Part shown: positions 57,012 through 64,000 of the stretch, piece after piece
Layout of the letters: each line of letters opens with the position of its first letter
How positions within the stretch are numbered: position 1 is the first letter of the stretch
Assembly: GCA_963678315.1 (NCBI GenBank)
Contig: OY782781.1
Span: 2,912,001-2,976,000 of the forward strand
Length of the DNA: 64,000 nucleotides
Direction: 5' to 3'
From: Candidatus Cloacimonadales bacterium
Lineage (GTDB): Bacteria; Cloacimonadota; Cloacimonadia; Cloacimonadales; JAFGVF01
The notes under the pieces: generated by a model
The model's database searches: none
Told to the model about the DNA's origin: nothing
Seen by the model: the letters and a program-made list of their open reading frames with translations, nothing else
Program-made: the position numbers and the translations under genes

Positions 57012-59744
57012 TTATGATCTAGGGTTTTTAGCTGCTGCTTGTGCTGCTGCTAATCTAGCGATAGGTACACGGAATGGTGAGCATGAAACATAGTTCATAC
57101 CAACACTATGACAGAATTCAACTGATGATGGTTCACCACCATGTTCGCCACAGATACCAACTTTAAGTTCAGGTCTAGTTGAACGACCTTTTTCTGTACC
57201 CATTTGAACTAATTGTCCAACACCTGATTGATCAAGTTGTTGGAAAGGATCTGATGGTAGAAGACCTTTTTCAAGATAGATAGGTAAGAATTTACCAGCA
57301 TCGTCACGTGAGTAACCGAATGTCATTTGAGTAAGGTCATTAGTACCGAATGAGAAGAATTCAGCAACTTCAGCAACTTGGTCAGCAGTTAAAGCAGCTC
57401 TAGGAATTTCAATCATTGTACCAACCATGTAATCTACAGATTCGCCTGTTTCAGAAAATACTTTAGAAGCAGTTTCTCTGATGATACTTTCTTGAAGTTT
57501 AAGTTCAGCAACTGTACCGATAAGTGGAACCATGATTTCTGGGTGTACATCGATACCTTCTTTTTTCACATTGATAGCAGCTTCGATGATTGCTCTAGCT
57601 TGCATAGCAGTGATTTCTGGGTATGTGTTACCTAAACGACAACCACGGTGACCAAGCATAGGGTTGAATTCAGCTAATGATTCAACTTTGTCTTTAACTT
57701 CTTGAAGAGTTAAGCCCATTTCGTCAGCCATGATTTGTTGTGCTTTTTCATCATGAGGTACGAATTCGTGTAATGGTGGATCAAGTAATCTAACAGTTAC
57801 ACCGAATGTATCCATAGCTCTGAAAATACCTTCGAAGTCTTCACGTTGGTAAGGTAAAATTTTAGCTAAAGCAGTTTCTCTACCATTAACGTCTTCAGAA
57901 AGAATCATTTCTCTAACAGCTTTAATTCTTTCACCTTCGAAGAACATGTGTTCTGTACGGCAAAGACCGATACCTTGAGCACCGAAGTTTCTAGCTACTT
58001 CAGCATCATGTGGAGTATCAGCATTAGTTCTAACATACATGTTTGTGAATTTGTCTGCAAGTTCCATTAATTTACCGAAGTTACCTGATAATTCAGGATC
58101 GATAGTTTCAATGTTACCTTCATAAACTTCACCAGTAGATCCGTTTAATGAAATCCAGTCGTTTTCACCATAAACTGTACCACCGATTGTAAGTGTTCTT
58201 TTCTTATAGTCGATTTTTAAAGCACCAACACCTGATACACAGCATTTACCCATACCACGAGCCACAACAGCAGCGTGAGAAGTCATTCCACCACGAGCAG
58301 TAAGGATACCTTGAGCAGTGTTCATACCTGCTAAATCTTCAGGAGAAGTTTCGATTCTAACAAGAATAACTTTTTCACCTTTAGCAAATCTTTCTTCAGC
58401 TTCATCAGAGAAGAAACAGATTTTACCTGTAGCAGCACCAGGAGATGCAGGAAGACCAGAAGCTAATACTTTACCAGCAGCTAAAGCTTCTTTCTTGAAT
58501 ACAGGGTGTAGAAGTTCATCTAATTTGTTAGGTTCAACTCTTAATAGAGCTGTTTTAGCATCGATGAAACCTTCTTCCATCATTTCGATAGCCATTCTTA
58601 CCATGGCTGCACCAGTTCTTTTGCCATTACGAGTTTGTAAGAACCATAATTTACCATCTTGGATAGTGAATTCAAGGTCTTGCATATCTTTATAATGATC
58701 TTCTAGTTTTTGTTGAATATCATCTAATTCTTTATAGATTTCAGGCATTGTTTCTTCTAATGAAGGATAATTAGCTGCTCTGTCTTCTTCTGTAACATTA
58801 GCTAATTTAGCCCATCTTCTTGAACCTTCAAGAGTAATTTCTTGTGGAGTTCTAACACCAGCAACAACGTCTTCACCTTGAGCATTGATTAAATACTCAC
58901 CATTGAAGATGTTTTCACCTGTAGCAGCGTCACGTGTGAAAGCAACACCAGTAGCTGAGTTTTCACCCATGTTACCATAAACCATTGCTTGAACGTTAAC
59001 AGCTGTTCCCCATTCACCAGGAATGCTATTCATTTTTCTATAATAGATAGCTCTTTCATTATTCCAGCTACCAAACACAGCAAAGATTGCACCCCATAAT
59101 TGTTCCCAAGGACAATCAGGGAAATCTCTACCTGTATTTTCTTTAACAGCAGCTTTAAATTTAGCAACTAAAACTTTTAAGTCTTCAACTGTTAAATCTA
59201 AATCACTTTCAACACCTTTTGCTTCTTTCACTTCTTCAATGATTTCTTCAAAAGGATCAATATCTTCTTTTGATTTTGGTTTCATATCAAGAACAACATC
59301 ACCGTACATTTGTACGAAACGTCTGTATGAATCCCAAGCAAATCTGTCATTTCCTGATTTCTTTGCAATGCCTTCGACAGCATCATCATTTAAACCAAGA
59401 TTAAGAACTGTGTCCATCATACCTGGCATTGAAACTCTAGCGCCTGAACGTACTGATAAAAGAAGTGGATTTTCATTAGAACCAAATTTAGTTCCAAGAA
59501 TATCTTCTACATTTTTAATAGCAGCTTCAACTTCTGCTTTCAATAATTCTTTAATTTTCTCTTCACCAATTGTGTTATATTCAGTACATACATCTGTAGT
59601 AATTGTGAATCCTGGAGGCACAGGAACTCCAACCAAGTTCATCTCTGCCAAGTTTGCACCTTTACCACCAAGAAGGTTCTTCATTGAAGTCTTACCTTCT
59701 GCTTTGCCATTGCCAAATAAATAAACGCGTTTCACGTCGGACAT
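57012..59744 (-). CDS. ppdK: pyruvate, phosphate dikinase
   Basis: [28 protein letters not shown] phospho-His motif, [17 protein letters not shown]. Confidence 0.98.
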
Positions 59745-59968
59745 TTTTCCTCCTAACTTTTAGGTTATATATTGTCTTTAAATAAGTTACAACTTAATTA
59801 TTTTACGCATTCATTTCTAATAACTTATGCTATCTTGTCAATTAATATTTGGGAAAAACTTAACAATTCTCAAATGAACTCTTTGAATGCTAATTCTTGA
59901 TTAATTTATGATAAATTTACTATCAATATTAATCATAAAAACACTTCTTAACTTGAGACTGACAATAC

Positions 59969-60370
59969 ATTATTCGACTAATTCAACAAATAGTTTGACA
60001 TCTAAACTAAAAAAGCTAAAGTTTGCAATATTTTTTAATAGCAAGAGGTAAACATGAAAGAAAATGGGGTTTATATTTTAAACAAATTTGAAGTAGGACA
60101 ATTCTACGCTAAAAATCATAACTTAAACTATGGGGCAAACAATCCTCATAAGTTATATATATATATATATACTTTAGAAATCTAGCTTTCCCATAAAAAA
60201 CGACTGAATTCAATGTGAGAGCTGAATTCAGTCCGTAATAAACACTACAAGTGTTGTGTTGAAATTAATCAACGCAACATTATTACAAAAATAAAAAAAG
60301 TAAAGGAAAATATTATGAAAAAGATAATAATAATGTTGTTAGCCTTGTTGGCTATTGGGATAGTTAGTGC
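59969..60370 (+). repeat. ~400-bp promoter/leader/signal-peptide cassette, second copy at 62997-63396
   Basis: Near-identical sequence at offset 3028/3026, from upstream of TTGACA to the end of the signal peptide MKKIIIMLLALLAIGIVSA. Confidence 0.95.
60054..60185 (+). CDS. leader peptide (43 aa) containing a (TA)9 tract
   Basis: GAGGT RBS; MKENGVYILNKFEVGQFYAKNHNLNYGANNPHKLYIYIYTLEI*; substitutions versus copy 2 are all synonymous. Confidence 0.6.
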   Translation: MKENGVYILNKFEVGQFYAKNHNLNYGANNPHKLYIYIYTLEI

Positions 60371-60677
60371 ATATACATTAGTGATTAGAACTGATGTACC
60401 TGTAGATTTAACAAATTGGATGTATAGATACAACGATAATGGACCATATTATCCATGTCCAAATCATGATGAACATTTATCACCTGGAGTTTATACTTAT
60501 GAATTAGCTGCACCGCATTATAAATTTAACTATAAGTACTTTTCAGAAATAACAGGGAATATGAGAACTGGAGTAAAATATTTAGATTTTAGTTCAACAG
60601 ATGTTATAGAAATTGTGTTCAAAGGTAAACTTGGTATAACACCAATAGAACCTGTGTTTCCACCAAGTGGACAATAA
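60315..60677 (+). CDS. small secreted protein
   Basis: Signal peptide identical to that of 63341-63682; Pro-rich tail. Confidence 0.75.
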   Translation: MKKIIIMLLALLAIGIVSAYTLVIRTDVPVDLTNWMYRYNDNGPYYPCPNHDEHLSPGVYTYELAAPHYKFNYKYFSEITGNMRTGVKYLDFSSTDVIEIVFKGKLGITPIEPVFPPSGQ

Positions 60678-60729
60678 TTATAAGTAATTACAAAGGGAGC
60701 TAATGCTCCCTTTGAATAAGGAGGAAGAT

Positions 60730-62934
60730 ATGTTAAAAAGACTATTTTTATTAGTAATATTACTAGCTATTTTAAGTTTGAGTGCTGTTTTCGACTTAAG
60801 TTTAGAATCTGAGTTTAATACTTCGTCTAGAACTAGATGTTTGCACATGAGTATTGATGGAGATTACTTATGCTACAATAGTTTTCATGGACTACATATT
60901 ATTGACCAAGACTTTAATGAATTTAATGAGATACCATTGTCCAATATTGATGATTTTCAGATGTGCAACAATAATTTATATACATACACTGACCATGGGG
61001 AGCTTAATTCATACACAATAGATCTTTATAGGAACTATTTAACCAATAGTGGAGAATATAGATCTATAACATTTACCAATAGTTCAATGTGGCGAATGTC
61101 CAAGTGTAACAATGTTTTATTAATCAACTATTATGACTATGATAATCACGGATATCGTACTCTGACTTTAGATTCCTACTTAGCTGTATCTCATATTGAA
61201 TCTTTAGATGATTATAAATTTCTATCCAAAATTAATAATAGTGATTATATCTTAGCAAATAATGAGAATAATGATTCAATATGCATGTTCTCTATTTCAT
61301 CTGAGGCAAATAATACTGTCGATATTATAGACTTGCCAGATAGTAACTATTATGAAGGGAGTCTCTACAACAATATATTAGCATTAAGAAACCAAGAAAG
61401 TGTTGATTTTATAAATCTAGAGACAAATGAGACTTTCTACAACTATACTTATGATGATGCCCTGAACTCATACAATGGTATCTATGTTGATGAGACTGTA
61501 TTGATTTTTGCTACATACATTGACTCCAGATTTAAACTAAAGGTTGTTGATATTGCTTCAGGAGAACTTCTAATGTACAAGGATGTTAATGATCTAGTGA
61601 ATCTGCAATATATGGAATTATCATTTTTATCAGAATTGTGTCAATGTGAGAATGATTTATATTTAATTGCTAACAATCAACCGTTAATCAAACTACAAGT
61701 TAACAATGATGATATTGAGTTAGTTGATTATTTTAACAATGTTTACTCTCCTATACTAGGGACTTACAGCAATGAAAACTACTTTTATCATTGTAATATT
61801 CCAGAGCTACTTGTTACAGATATAAGTGACCCCTCAAATCCTGTTAACATAGAGCACAATCTCCCAGATGGTATATATCAATGGTATGATATAAATGAAC
61901 AACTAACTGCTTTGCGATATAATCTTGATAATGGTATGCTATATCACTACACAATAGAAAATAATGAAATAGTAAGCTCTGACTCATTAGTTAACCTATC
62001 TATTTTTCAAGATGACTATATGACCCCTTTAGATTGTAATGAAGAAAGAGTAATATATAAAAACTCAGAGGGGGTTAAAGCTGTTGATCTAATAGATCAT
62101 TCGCTAATGTGGGAGTTAGATTATAACTCACCAGTTATGTTACAAGCAGTTATTGGTGATTACTTATATGTTGGTGAATTTATGCACAATGATTATACAG
62201 TATATCAGTTTGATAATGAGTCTATTACATTTATTCAAGATTTCCATACTGATAACATTGAGTTTGCTGATTTTTACACTCAAGATGAAATGTTAGTTGT
62301 TCATGGTTTTGAAGGTGGCTATTGCTATGATATCAGAGAAAATCCTGTACCGCAAGAGCCAATCTTAGAAGATGTTATAACTAACGTCAACAGTAATATT
62401 GTTTCATTTAACAATAGCAAGCTGTTTGTAGGGAATATACTACAAGATGGTCAAGAATTATCCAACTACTTGTGTTGTATCAATGAAGATGATGGAAACT
62501 TCTCTCTTATTGGAGCAATACCTGTAATGTATGAATACGTCAATGTAAGTTTAAATTACATCGACAATACAAACTTCAACATTATCTTTGATGGAAATGT
62601 AGGTTCTGCGATCTATTCATGTCATTTAACCCCCAACGGAAACTTTGAAGTTCAACCTGTTAATCTAGAATGTTCAAACTACCCTAATCCTTTTAATCCG
62701 CAAACGACTATTTCCTATAATATTGATAAAGCGTCAGATGTAGAGCTAACAATCTATAATATTAAAGGTCAGAAAGTAAGAACACTTGTTGATGATCAAC
62801 AAGAAGCAGGTAGACATGATATTGTTTGGGATGGTACAGATAGCAAGGGTAAGAAAGTAGCTTCAGGAACTTACCTCTATAAGGTAAAAGCTGATGACCA
62901 AGAAGTAGTAAATAAGATGTTAATGATTAAATAA
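60730..62934 (+). CDS. large secreted beta-propeller-like protein with FlgD/T9SS-type C-terminal domain
   Basis: GGAGG RBS, signal peptide, LVIVD-like LVTDISDPSNP, NYPNPFNPQTTI tail. Confidence 0.8.
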   Translation: MLKRLFLLVILLAILSLSAVFDLSLESEFNTSSRTRCLHMSIDGDYLCYNSFHGLHIIDQDFNEFNEIPLSNIDDFQMCNNNLYTYTDHGELNSYTIDLYRNYLTNSGEYRSITFTNSSMWRMSKCNNVLLINYYDYDNHGYRTLTLDSYLAVSHIESLDDYKFLSKINNSDYILANNENNDSICMFSISSEANNTVDIIDLPDSNYYEGSLYNNILALRNQESVDFINLETNETFYNYTYDDALNSYNGIYVDETVLIFATYIDSRFKLKVVDIASGELLMYKDVNDLVNLQYMELSFLSELCQCENDLYLIANNQPLIKLQVNNDDIELVDYFNNVYSPILGTYSNENYFYHCNIPELLVTDISDPSNPVNIEHNLPDGIYQWYDINEQLTALRYNLDNGMLYHYTIENNEIVSSDSLVNLSIFQDDYMTPLDCNEERVIYKNSEGVKAVDLIDHSLMWELDYNSPVMLQAVIGDYLYVGEFMHNDYTVYQFDNESITFIQDFHTDNIEFADFYTQDEMLVVHGFEGGYCYDIRENPVPQEPILEDVITNVNSNIVSFNNSKLFVGNILQDGQELSNYLCCINEDDGNFSLIGAIPVMYEYVNVSLNYIDNTNFNIIFDGNVGSAIYSCHLTPNGNFEVQPVNLECSNYPNPFNPQTTISYNIDKASDVELTIYNIKGQKVRTLVDDQQEAGRHDIVWDGTDSKGKKVASGTYLYKVKADDQEVVNKMLMIK

Positions 62935-62942
62935 TTCTGTTA

Positions 62943-62968
62943 GGAGCAGGCTTTTTAGTCTGCTCTTT
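62943..62968 (+). terminator. probable intrinsic terminator
   Basis: GAGCAGGCT-TTTT-AGTCTGCTC followed by TTT, just after the stop at 62934. Confidence 0.6.
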
Positions 62969-63081
62969 AATTAATTTTGTTACAGTGAGATAACAAATTA
63001 TTCGACTAAATCAATAAATAGTTTGACATCTAAATTAAAAATGCTAAAGTTTGCAATATGTTTTAATAGCAAGAGGTAAAC

Positions 63082-63222
63082 ATGAAAGAAAATGGGGTTT
63101 ATATTTTAAACAAATTTGAAGTAGGACAATTCTACGCTAAAAATCATAACTTAAATTATGGGGCAAATAATCCTCATAAGCTATATATATATATATACTT
63201 TAGAAATCTAGCTTTCCCATAA
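63082..63222 (+). CDS. leader peptide (46 aa) containing a (TA)8 tract
   Basis: Same RBS and N-terminus as 60054; one fewer TA gives the ending LYIYIYFRNLAFP*. Confidence 0.6.
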   Translation: MKENGVYILNKFEVGQFYAKNHNLNYGANNPHKLYIYIYFRNLAFP

Positions 63223-63340
63223 TAAACGACTGAATTCAATGTGAGAGCTGAATTCAGTCCGTAATAAACACTACAAGTGTTGTGTTGAAATTAATCAACG
63301 CAACATTATTACAAAAATAAAAAAAATAAAGGAAAATATT

Positions 63341-63682
63341 ATGAAAAAGATAATAATAATGTTGTTAGCCTTGTTGGCTATTGGGATAGTTAGTGCGAAA
63401 ACAATACATATACACACAGATATGATAATTGATAACATAGCCGTATATAGATACGACCATCTTGGCACCTGTAGTTTGTATAATACATATGGTAATTGTA
63501 AAGATATCAGTGGCCTACCTTCAGGAACATACAGAACAGTTATTGACGGAAAAACTATAATTGATCGTTTCCCTGTTACATGGGTTGAAGATAATATTTG
63601 GTTGATTACTGGCGATGAAGTTACTATTGAAAAATACTATGATACGGCGTCTGGTGATCCAGGAACAGGTAATGAACAATAA
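63341..63682 (+). CDS. small secreted protein
   Basis: Same signal peptide as 60315-60677, different mature region. Confidence 0.75.
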   Translation: MKKIIIMLLALLAIGIVSAKTIHIHTDMIIDNIAVYRYDHLGTCSLYNTYGNCKDISGLPSGTYRTVIDGKTIIDRFPVTWVEDNIWLITGDEVTIEKYYDTASGDPGTGNEQ

Positions 63683-63738
63683 ATAAAGCATTCAGGGTAG
63701 ATAATCTACCCTGAATTCTACACTTTTAAGGAGGATAA

Positions 63739-64000
63739 ATGGCTTTTTTTAGAATTTCAACTATCTTATTATTTTGTTTTTTAGCAGTTAGCTTATTTTG
63801 TAATGTAGATTTTGAGAGTTCCAATTATTTTGGAATTGCAGATTCACCTCAAAATTTTTTTAAAAGTATACATATGATGAACGACTTACTAATCTCAGAA
63901 ACTGCATTTGGGTTAAATTTCAAACAAATTCATGAAGATGGTTCTCTAGAAAACTTGTGCTCTCTTAGATGTGACAGTCTTAGCAGCATTGTTGCATCCA
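63739..64000 (+). CDS. secreted protein, 3'-truncated by the window (positional counterpart of 60730-62934)
   Basis: AGGAGG RBS, MAFFRISTILLFCFLAVSLFC signal-like N-terminus, frame open to the window end. Confidence 0.7.
   Translation, partial: MAFFRISTILLFCFLAVSLFCNVDFESSNYFGIADSPQNFFKSIHMMNDLLISETAFGLNFKQIHEDGSLENLCSLRCDSLSSIVAS

Follow-up and report, generated by a model that had tools for sequence, protein, structure and literature searches.

How does an open reading frame (ORF) end when it runs into a tract of TA repeats whose length changes from copy to copy, and what would its end mean for the genes behind it? The question is raised by a locus in a 64,000-nucleotide (nt) stretch of the genome of a Candidatus Cloacimonadales bacterium (the window, G000:C1:2912001-2976000; the genome, G000, is a single contig, C1, of 2,988,751 bp with 32.8% G+C, and coordinates without a genome prefix are window positions). 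Here cassettes of genes for secreted proteins are preceded by a leader that holds a short ORF, a TA tract and hairpins. The initial annotation of the locus counted two cassette copies, whereas the genome count is six, in tandem and each about 3 kb long, reaching the contig end, with the first two in the window. We argue that the leader may be a repeat-driven switch, acting through the leader ORF, for variable cassettes of type IX secretion system (T9SS) cargo, the tract variation being known between copies and between genomes; we would give this reading slightly better than even odds (a probability of about 0.55).

The TA tract and its three stops

A sigma-70-type promoter, TTGACA-16-TAAAGT, was found by the promoter scan at 59995..60022 in cassette 1 and at 63023..63050 in cassette 2 (these and all other cassette features lie on the plus strand). 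It is followed in cassette 1 by the Shine-Dalgarno (SD) motif GAGGT (60045..60049), located 5 nt before the ATG of a leader ORF of 43 amino acids (aa) with the stop codon TAG (60054..60185), while the leader ORF of cassette 2 has 46 aa and the stop codon TAA (63082..63222). Both ORFs start MKENGVYILNKFEVGQFYAKNHNLNYGANNPHKLYIYIY. The 3' end of the 16S rRNA is GGATCACCTCCTTT, and hence SD-led initiation is expected. The TTGACA, the GAGGT ribosome-binding site (RBS) and the ORF had been reported for both copies, and all of them were located; the ORF had also been called unannotated, whereas the 43-aa ORF had already been predicted by a gene caller in the protein collection.

The frame of the 3' end of the leader ORF is set by the tract, which is (TA)9 at 60154..60171 in cassette 1 and (TA)8 at 63182..63197 in cassette 2. 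The repeat reads only TAT and ATA (Tyr-Ile), therefore no stop arises within it and the tract can be crossed in any frame. Frame reading past the tract gives three alternative stops and a pyrimidine box at 60175..60196, the box itself being CTTTCCC (60186-60192). With seven units, as in three copies outside the window, the ORF ends with ...YIL at TAG 60175-60177, 24 nt before a hairpin that we call H1; with nine or six units it ends with ...YTLEI at TAG 60183-60185, 16 nt before H1; and with eight units it ends with ...FRNLAFP at a TAA (60194-60196 in cassette 1 coordinates, used at 63220-63222), 5 nt before H1. The tract lengths, the stop positions and the 16-nt and 5-nt spacings of the initial annotation all agree with the sequence, as does its remark that the third frame stops earlier still.

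The tracts of the six cassettes have 9, 8, 6, 7, 7 and 7 units. The leader ORF is open in all six copies, none of them showing the disruption before the tract that had been named as the observation to look for against a switch, and all three post-tract frames are used. Leader copies 1 and 2 are 97% identical over 331 nt, and in the 351 aligned columns of the six leaders the sole indels are three nested 2-nt gaps within the tract. In the whole 2.99-Mb genome there are eight tracts of at least (TA)6, six of which are those of the leaders, and all five tracts of at least (TA)7 belong to leaders. With (TA)6-9, the leader tracts reach the slippage cut-off of at least six dinucleotide units, which is that of PhasomeIt for candidate phase variation according to the available text of PMC6321876. 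Paralogues differ in repeat length but are conserved in the flanks, both in these leaders and in those of the sister genus described below. The TA tract is a conserved indel hot spot, hypervariable in evolution, its length differing between otherwise near-identical paralogues. The two other (TA)6 tracts of the genome are at C1:992897 and 2448789, and one A13 run is also present.

Fourteen sequencing runs in six studies contain all or part of the stretch, none of them listed as an RNA run, and those compared (X1, X2, X6 and X9) are assembled contigs. The leaders of X1 are collapsed to one contig with 304 letters on 308 positions; the leader contig of X2 has 306 letters on 310 positions and carries the base differences of cassette 4; and that of X6, whose small gene deviates by about 5% and which is thus another strain, counts 310 letters against 308 positions, a net gain of 2 over 60033-60340. 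In each run the copies are merged in one leader contig, and the differences in length are net values over that contig.

The leader ORF in the window and in the sister genus

When 60 relatives were searched at the DNA level with the 331-nt leader, the only matches outside the genome itself were of 21-54 nt, to the TA tract or to A-rich parts. As similarity of leader DNA misses the leaders of the sister genus g2, these were located through the proteins. Homologues of the large cassette protein with 24-25% identity were found in two genomes of g2, which belongs to the same family. With a profile of the small cassette protein (A2), 203 genomes of the order were scanned, and full-length homologues were found only in the family f1, in all seven genomes of g2 and in none of the four genomes of the genus g3; the matches in other families are weak and mostly cover the signal peptide. 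A contig scan with the small-protein alignment gave 598 pattern matches with one confirmed (G009), and a metagenome scan with the H1 pattern gave 14 loci, all of them unrelated palindromes. The 340 nt upstream of the 17 small-gene starts of g2 were extracted, and 23 leaders, six from the window's genome and 17 from g2, are counted below.

A TA tract is present in all 17 g2 leaders (seven of seven genomes). It has 4 to about 13 units and lies within 133-182 nt upstream of the small-gene ATG, ending 133-159 nt before it. Its length differs between paralogues of one genome: there are 10, 8 and 9.5 units in G009 a, b and c, 10, 8, 4, 5 and about 12.5 units in the five copies of G011, 6, 5 and 7 in the three copies of G005, and 7 and 6 in the two copies of G003; the two copies of G007 have 6 units each, G001 has 6 and G010 has 9.5. 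Between the tract and the ATG, the leaders of the two genera can be aligned (alignment A3). Moreover, TTGACA with a TATAGT-like hexamer 16-19 nt downstream recurs in the g2 leaders, as read by eye from the upstream sequences. In both leaders of G003 (L092) and in that of G010 (L095) the -10 hexamer of the leader promoter is directly followed by a second repeat, an (AT)5 run, close to where transcription should start.

The stops behind the tract recur as well. In frame A, a TAG 0-3 nt past the tract is present in all aligned leaders, and in frame C the same holds for a TAA or TAG directly past the pyrimidine box YCCW, 19-22 nt past the tract. Frame B ends 8-11 nt past the tract in some leaders, at a TAA in the loop of H1 (+38) in G001, G007b and G003b, and beyond H1 (+80) in G007a. 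Frames A, B and C are used in 8, 10 and 5 of the 23 leaders, respectively, and cassettes of one genome usually differ in frame. As the frames read, tract length alone selects among three staggered stops, and all three are used in nature.

The leader ORF is retained along with its tract. An SD motif and an ATG or GTG, followed by 33-37 codons running into the tract, are present in 20 of the 23 leaders (eight genomes), the SD motifs being purine-rich (AAGGAAAG, AAAGGTAAG, AGGCAGGT or AAGAGGT). Among the exceptions there are G009b, with 34 codons lacking a clear SD motif or 18 codons from an inner ATG after GAGGA, and G011_C6a, which is cut by the contig end; the third, G009a, is considered with the points that speak against a switch. 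The bodies of the leader ORFs in six lineages are just 45-67% identical in nucleotides, all with the frame open. Per lineage, 0.65-6.4% of dinucleotide shuffles have an open frame, and the product over the six lineages is 3e-10, which somewhat overstates the case, as the lineages are related. The two shifted forward frames have stops in 18 and 30 codon columns. Judged by the SD motif, start codon and open frame in these 20 leaders, the leader ORF is almost certainly translated.

The initial annotation had seen a sign of translation in the differences between copies 1 and 2 before the tract (AAC/AAT twice and TTA/CTA). These are indeed synonymous, but as a signal of translation this does not extend to the whole family, since within-genome paralogues show 10 synonymous versus 51 non-synonymous codon-state changes. 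Third positions account for 22 of the 69 variable sites in the same family-wide comparison of within-genome paralogues (P = 0.64), and for G000 alone there is a third-position excess, 8 of 13 (P = 0.035). The frame is kept open while the peptide drifts, which argues that selection keeps the act of translation, not the peptide. Such a pattern, translation that appears to be kept with no constraint on the peptide, is what is expected of a regulatory leader ORF.

Leader helices and the possible read-out

The fold of the leader is far better than that of its shuffles (z = -5.0 to -5.7; none of 100-200 shuffles equal). The hairpin H1, supported by the fold and by covariation, has an 11-bp stem and a 10-nt loop (60202..60233; stem GACTGAATTCA/TGAATTCAGTC, 60202-60212/60223-60233) and is found in cassette 2 at 63228..63259 with the same stem GACTGAATTCA/TGAATTCAGTC (63228-63238/63249-63259). 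In alignment A4, 97.6% of its cells are paired, five of the 11 pairs have substitutions in both partners, and G000 and g2 differ by the exchange of four pairs. For H1 the covariation score is 0.391 versus 0.223 in shuffles, with 0 of 500 shuffles reaching 0.391, and when the partner strand is slid by 1-3 columns, just 14-50% of cells pair. The hairpin H3 (60251..60280), with a 6-nt loop on a stem of 12 bp, one of them U.G, shows two compensatory changes (G009b and G011) and three G.U pairs (G000, G007b and G010). Wobble pairs fall on the plus strand, with eight G.U/U.G cells in H1 and three in H3 against about two C.A cells of the minus-strand type, and therefore H1 and H3 are plus-strand RNA helices. 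The 11-bp stem of the initial annotation is thus found at its positions as a real covarying RNA helix downstream of the leader stop.

The overlapping alternative pairings that had been proposed, AACACT/AGTGTT and TGTTGTGTTGA/TCAACGCAACA, fared differently: both are present, with a 4-nt overlap, but AACACT/AGTGTT is missing from the minimum-energy folds and its AACACT arm has no g2 counterpart in the alignment as read by eye, and this hairpin was rejected. An Rfam search of 59000-64000 gave five matches at E up to 10, all scoring far under their gathering thresholds and all outside the leader core. In cassettes 3 and 4 (G000:C1:2978310-2978735 and 2981348-2981791; window equivalent 60210-60215) a G-to-C change in the loop of H1 removes the TGA after an ATG, so that this ATG is in frame with the small gene, with ORFs of 141 and 147 aa.

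In most leaders of the sister genus, the pyrimidine box has a partner further downstream. The box region pairs with the SD motif, and partly with the AUG, of the small gene in G001, G003, G005, G007 and G010 (in the latter, for example, AAUAUCCUU pairs with AAGGAUAUU), whereas G009a and G009b have another box, ACUUCCUU, and another SD motif, AAGGAAGU, which pair with each other. As the pairing register differs between clades, this box:RBS helix was assessed by duplex energies and not by column-wise covariation on A3. In the ten leaders tested against shuffles (G001, G003, G005, G007, G009a/b and G010) the duplex has -9.2 to -12.8 kcal/mol, whereas the shuffles average -2.9 to -5.8 kcal/mol and 0-3.8% of them are as good. 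Moreover, cognate pairs of box and RBS beat cross-clade pairs, e.g. -10.8 vs -5.4. Five of the leaders with this helix were folded. In the free RNA the modelled probability of an unpaired SD motif is 0.02-0.09 for four of them and 0.28 for G003a, while with a ribosome placed on the same five leaders it is 0.25-0.71 at the first stop and 0.54-0.99 at the later stops. In most sister-genus leaders an RBS-occluding helix is better supported as the target than a terminator, and the read-out there is probably translational. As for the window's own copies, a ribosome at the TAA of the (TA)8 frame would cover the first bases of the 5' arm of H1, and the fold constrained in this way loses H1 (from -33.2 to -22.0 kcal/mol); the (TA)8-frame ribosome reaching into H1 is the sole frame-specific structural difference that modelling can show in these copies.

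The switch that we propose would then work as follows. Each cassette would be one transcription unit, consisting of the promoter, the leader ORF, the hairpins, the small protein, the large protein and the terminator. Replication slippage would add or remove TA units and so move the leader ribosome among three frames with fixed ends, the first right past the tract, the second just before the box (in some relatives inside or beyond H1) and the third just past the box. How far the ribosome travels would set how much of the downstream leader structure opens, and hence the expression of both cassette genes. In most sister-genus leaders the opened structure would be the helix of the box with the small-gene SD motif and AUG, which appears vestigial in the window's organism. 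Each cassette would switch on its own, so that a population would be a mixture of cells with different variable surface proteins on display. Translation itself, within-population switching, which frame is ON and the effect on expression are what we infer here. A more specific form, in our view less likely than not, would be a phase-variable translational riboregulator, in which the TA repeat heritably sets the reach of the ribosome into an RBS-occluding fold, and up to six independent tandem cassettes may yield many surface-protein combinations per clone, with antigenic or phage-receptor variation.

Several observations weigh against a switch of this kind. In the window's genome the SD motif of the small gene, AAAGGA (60302..60307 in cassette 1), pairs with the box in the fold by 5 bp only (UUUCC:GGAAA, -4.9 kcal/mol), and 55% of shuffles are as good; the box:RBS pairing is not above chance in G011 and G009c, and in G011 a local hairpin covers the RBS whatever the leader ORF does. 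The modelled SD accessibility in the window's genome is 0.79, 0.94 and 0.90 at the three stops, so that the frames differ little, since a ribosome at any of the three would cover part or all of the box. No U-tract follows H1, H3 or any other hairpin on the plus strand in any of the 23 leaders, and therefore a classical attenuator or terminator is not evident; the attenuator reading of the hairpins, made in the initial annotation, is not supported in this classical form. The leader ORF of G009a comprises just 11-14 codons after AGGAG. Gene conversion homogenises paralogues, and for this reason the six copies are not independent witnesses. Finally, tract lengths taken from metagenome-derived or long-read assemblies may carry errors.

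Some of the same data fit a constitutively translated leader, which might, for example, keep ribosomes on the 5' region, stabilise the mRNA or load ribosomes, the TA tract being neutral low-complexity sequence whose length drifts, as every frame would end harmlessly within about 25 nt, and no switch existing. The SD accessibility modelled for the window's genome hardly depends on the frame, the peptide sequence is unconstrained, and the three frames are about equally populated, as neutrality expects. Point mutation, however, should erode a neutral tract, yet a pure TA run stands at the same place in 23 of 23 leaders from two genera, and the leader runs include the longest dinucleotide tracts of the genome. 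Moreover, the stops past the tract and past the box are conserved in position across genera, and the box:RBS helix of the relatives yields frame-dependent accessibility in the models. We consider a neutral tract in such a leader unlikely.

That the leader ORF encodes a functional small protein, with the TA tract merely varying its C-terminal tail and the downstream genes unaffected, is improbable. The ORF is conserved together with its SD motif and start codon, a weak shared motif, C/L-N-x-Y-N, and a K-V/I-H ahead of the tract occur in several clades, and the available text of PMC2823697 names repeat-based switching of a C-terminal sequence for Helicobacter canadensis. Still, the counts of synonymous, non-synonymous and third-position changes given above are not the signature of a folded or binding protein, and the peptides are barely alignable between clades. 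No Pfam family was found for the leader peptide, and a search of the protein collection with the 46-aa ORF returned a sole match, the window's own 43-aa cluster.

We regard as very improbable a role at the DNA level, with the tract length setting the distance between the -35 and -10 hexamers of an internal promoter, as in hifA/hifB. Phase variation by a (TA)9-11 spacer is established for hif, according to the available text of PMC2651432, and the 3' end of the tract always forms a -10-like hexamer, TATACT or TATATT. However, no -35-like hexamer was seen by eye 16-18 nt upstream at any observed n, and the promoter scan gave no promoter with elements on both sides of the tract; the observed 4 to about 13 units correspond to 8-26 nt, far beyond the working range of a spacer; and the conserved SD motif, start codon and open frame into the tract would be left unexplained. 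A minus-strand cis-antisense small RNA ending at H1 followed by GTTTTTTATG and repressing the small-gene RBS can be set aside as highly improbable, for though H1 scores as a minus-strand intrinsic terminator in both window copies, TGTAATAAT can be read by eye as an extended -10-like motif upstream on the minus strand, and the minus strand also folds well (z = -5.05), the minus-strand T-run after H1 is not conserved in the G009, G011 and G003 leaders, and the wobble cells of H1 and H3 are of the plus-strand type.

Cassette genes, related systems and significance

The order within a cassette is the leader, a small secreted protein, a T9SS cargo protein of about 750 aa and a terminator. The conserved 5' block, delimited in cassette 1 by identity among the six cassettes (59975..60372) and in cassette 2 by comparison of the copies (63003..63398), comprises the promoter, the leader ORF, the TA tract, the hairpins, the RBS and the small-gene codons through the last one of the signal peptide, and is 92-98% identical across the six cassettes. 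Past this block, identity goes down to about 45% through both mature proteins and is back to 92-97% in the last 300 nt of the large gene, which encode the sorting domain. The high-low-high course of identity along the cassette means that the ends are homogenised and the middles hypervariable. The segment 62640-62960 and its equivalents (sorting domain and terminator), together with the 5' block, flank each variable middle by recombination-prone ends. The terminator scan places an intrinsic terminator at the end of cassette 1 (62942..62967).

The small secreted proteins have 113-120 aa across the cassettes (120 aa in cassette 1, 60315..60677; 113 aa in cassette 2, 63341..63682) and the signal peptide MKKIIIMLLALLAIGIVSA, and no Pfam family was found for them. 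The large protein of cassette 1 has 734 aa (60730..62934) with a C-terminal T9SS sorting domain (FlgD_ig, 1.1e-15; Por_Secre_tail, 8.9e-09), which is the only recognised part of the large proteins; only the start of its counterpart in cassette 2 lies in the window (63739..64000), the gene continuing past the window. The AlphaFold model of the 60730-62934 product is of low confidence (mean predicted local distance difference test score, pLDDT, of 59.9) and all-beta, with repeated four-strand units. Foldseek matched it to generic tandem beta-propellers. The top match is PorZ (5m11), which is one of the T9SS surface components and comprises two beta-propellers plus a sorting domain, but its template modelling (TM) score of 0.23 is too low for a function to be assigned.

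An 8-bp G+C-rich hairpin, AAGGGAGC-TAAT-GCTCCCTT, is situated between the small and the large gene (60693-60712) with no U-tract, and a comparable hairpin follows the small gene of cassette 2 (about 63692-63716). Outside the window, the contig origin cuts the sixth large gene into pieces of 259 aa and 473 aa, identical 14 nt stand at both contig ends, and a tblastn search shows that the gene changes frame exactly at this repeat; most likely, the split is a circularisation overlap left in the assembly rather than a real frameshift. The array begins about 230 nt after a 910-aa minus-strand ORF (57012-59744) that lies directly upstream of the first cassette and, judged by eye from its sequence, presumably resembles pyruvate phosphate dikinase.

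The combination of slippage with a leader peptide is already known, as it has been published for pil1. According to the available text of PMC3894217, GCAGA repeats in a 38-aa leader ORF of S. gallolyticus pil1/pil3 shift the stop, which otherwise lies 39 bp ahead of a stem-loop terminator, into this terminator or past it, and for pil1 it has been experimentally proven that ribosome-mediated melting of the terminator raises pilus transcription (Danne et al. 2014). As far as that text describes the pilus loci, the leaders studied here resemble them in several respects: a simple sequence repeat is part of a leader ORF that lies close to the promoter and has its own RBS, gain or loss of repeat units changes the frame and with it the position of the leader stop with respect to a stem-loop further downstream, an operon for a surface structure follows, and the repeat number varies between strains or copies. 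The differences are that the repeat is TA (2 nt, 4 to about 13 units) here and GCAGA (5 nt, 13-22 units) in pil1; that the organisms are Cloacimonadota rather than Firmicutes; that up to six tandem cassettes per genome each have their own switch, if it is one; and that the stem-loop lacks the U-tract of a terminator, while the read-out of pil1 is terminator melting. Moreover, the furthest stop in the window is 5 nt before the stem, stops inside or beyond the stem being found only in some relatives, and the RBS-occluding helix predicted in most relatives would mean translational rather than transcriptional control.

Such control would be closer to the translational attenuation of ermC and cat, where a ribosome on the leader ORF covers one strand of a helix and thereby frees the downstream RBS. 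Freeing of the RBS by a ribosome is modelled for G001, G003, G005, G007, G009a/b and G010; unlike in ermC and cat, the ribosome position would be set heritably by repeat length and not by drug-induced stalling, and in the window's own leaders the helix is weak.

Two systems of Haemophilus influenzae share other features. The hifA/hifB switch, a (TA)9-11 promoter spacer (van Ham 1993 and Geluk 1998, as cited in the available text of PMC2651432), has the same TA unit, an overlapping length range and a place 100-225 bp upstream of genes for surface structures; there, however, the tract lies between the -35 and -10 hexamers, while the TA tract of our leaders is located some 130 nt into the transcript, where a conserved ORF ends, and hexamers of the hif type bracketing it were found neither by the promoter scan nor by eye. 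In hmw, the available text of PMC12721329 describes a repeat hairpin in the 5' untranslated region processed by RNase III. As would hold for our leaders, the repeat is transcribed in a structured 5' leader, in hmw that of an adhesin gene, and acts post-transcriptionally; the hmw repeats, as described there, form one arm of a long hairpin, expression scales with the repeat number, and neither a leader ORF nor frame logic is involved.

A literature search found no phase-variable leader switch of such kind described for Cloacimonadota. Judged by its sequence, the candidate switch differs from the known kind in the repeat, the phylum, the arrayed copies and the missing terminator signature. To our knowledge, nearly all known cases of phase variation by repeat slippage come from host-adapted pathogens, and the leader-peptide version is known from one experimentally proven system, S. 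gallolyticus pil1/pil3. The present leaders would extend pil1-like logic, with a different repeat, to uncultivated anaerobic Cloacimonadales of two genera, where it is arrayed before hypervariable T9SS cargo. For annotation, they are a warning that a short ORF should be kept when it ends in a TA run and a surface gene follows. If the switch is real, repeat switches in leader ORFs would be a recurrent, convergent design, and the leaders with and without the RBS helix would serve as comparative controls in a natural test bed for frame-dependent control of translation. It would also mean that bacteria of digesters and sediments diversify their surface by this route, perhaps against phages or grazers.

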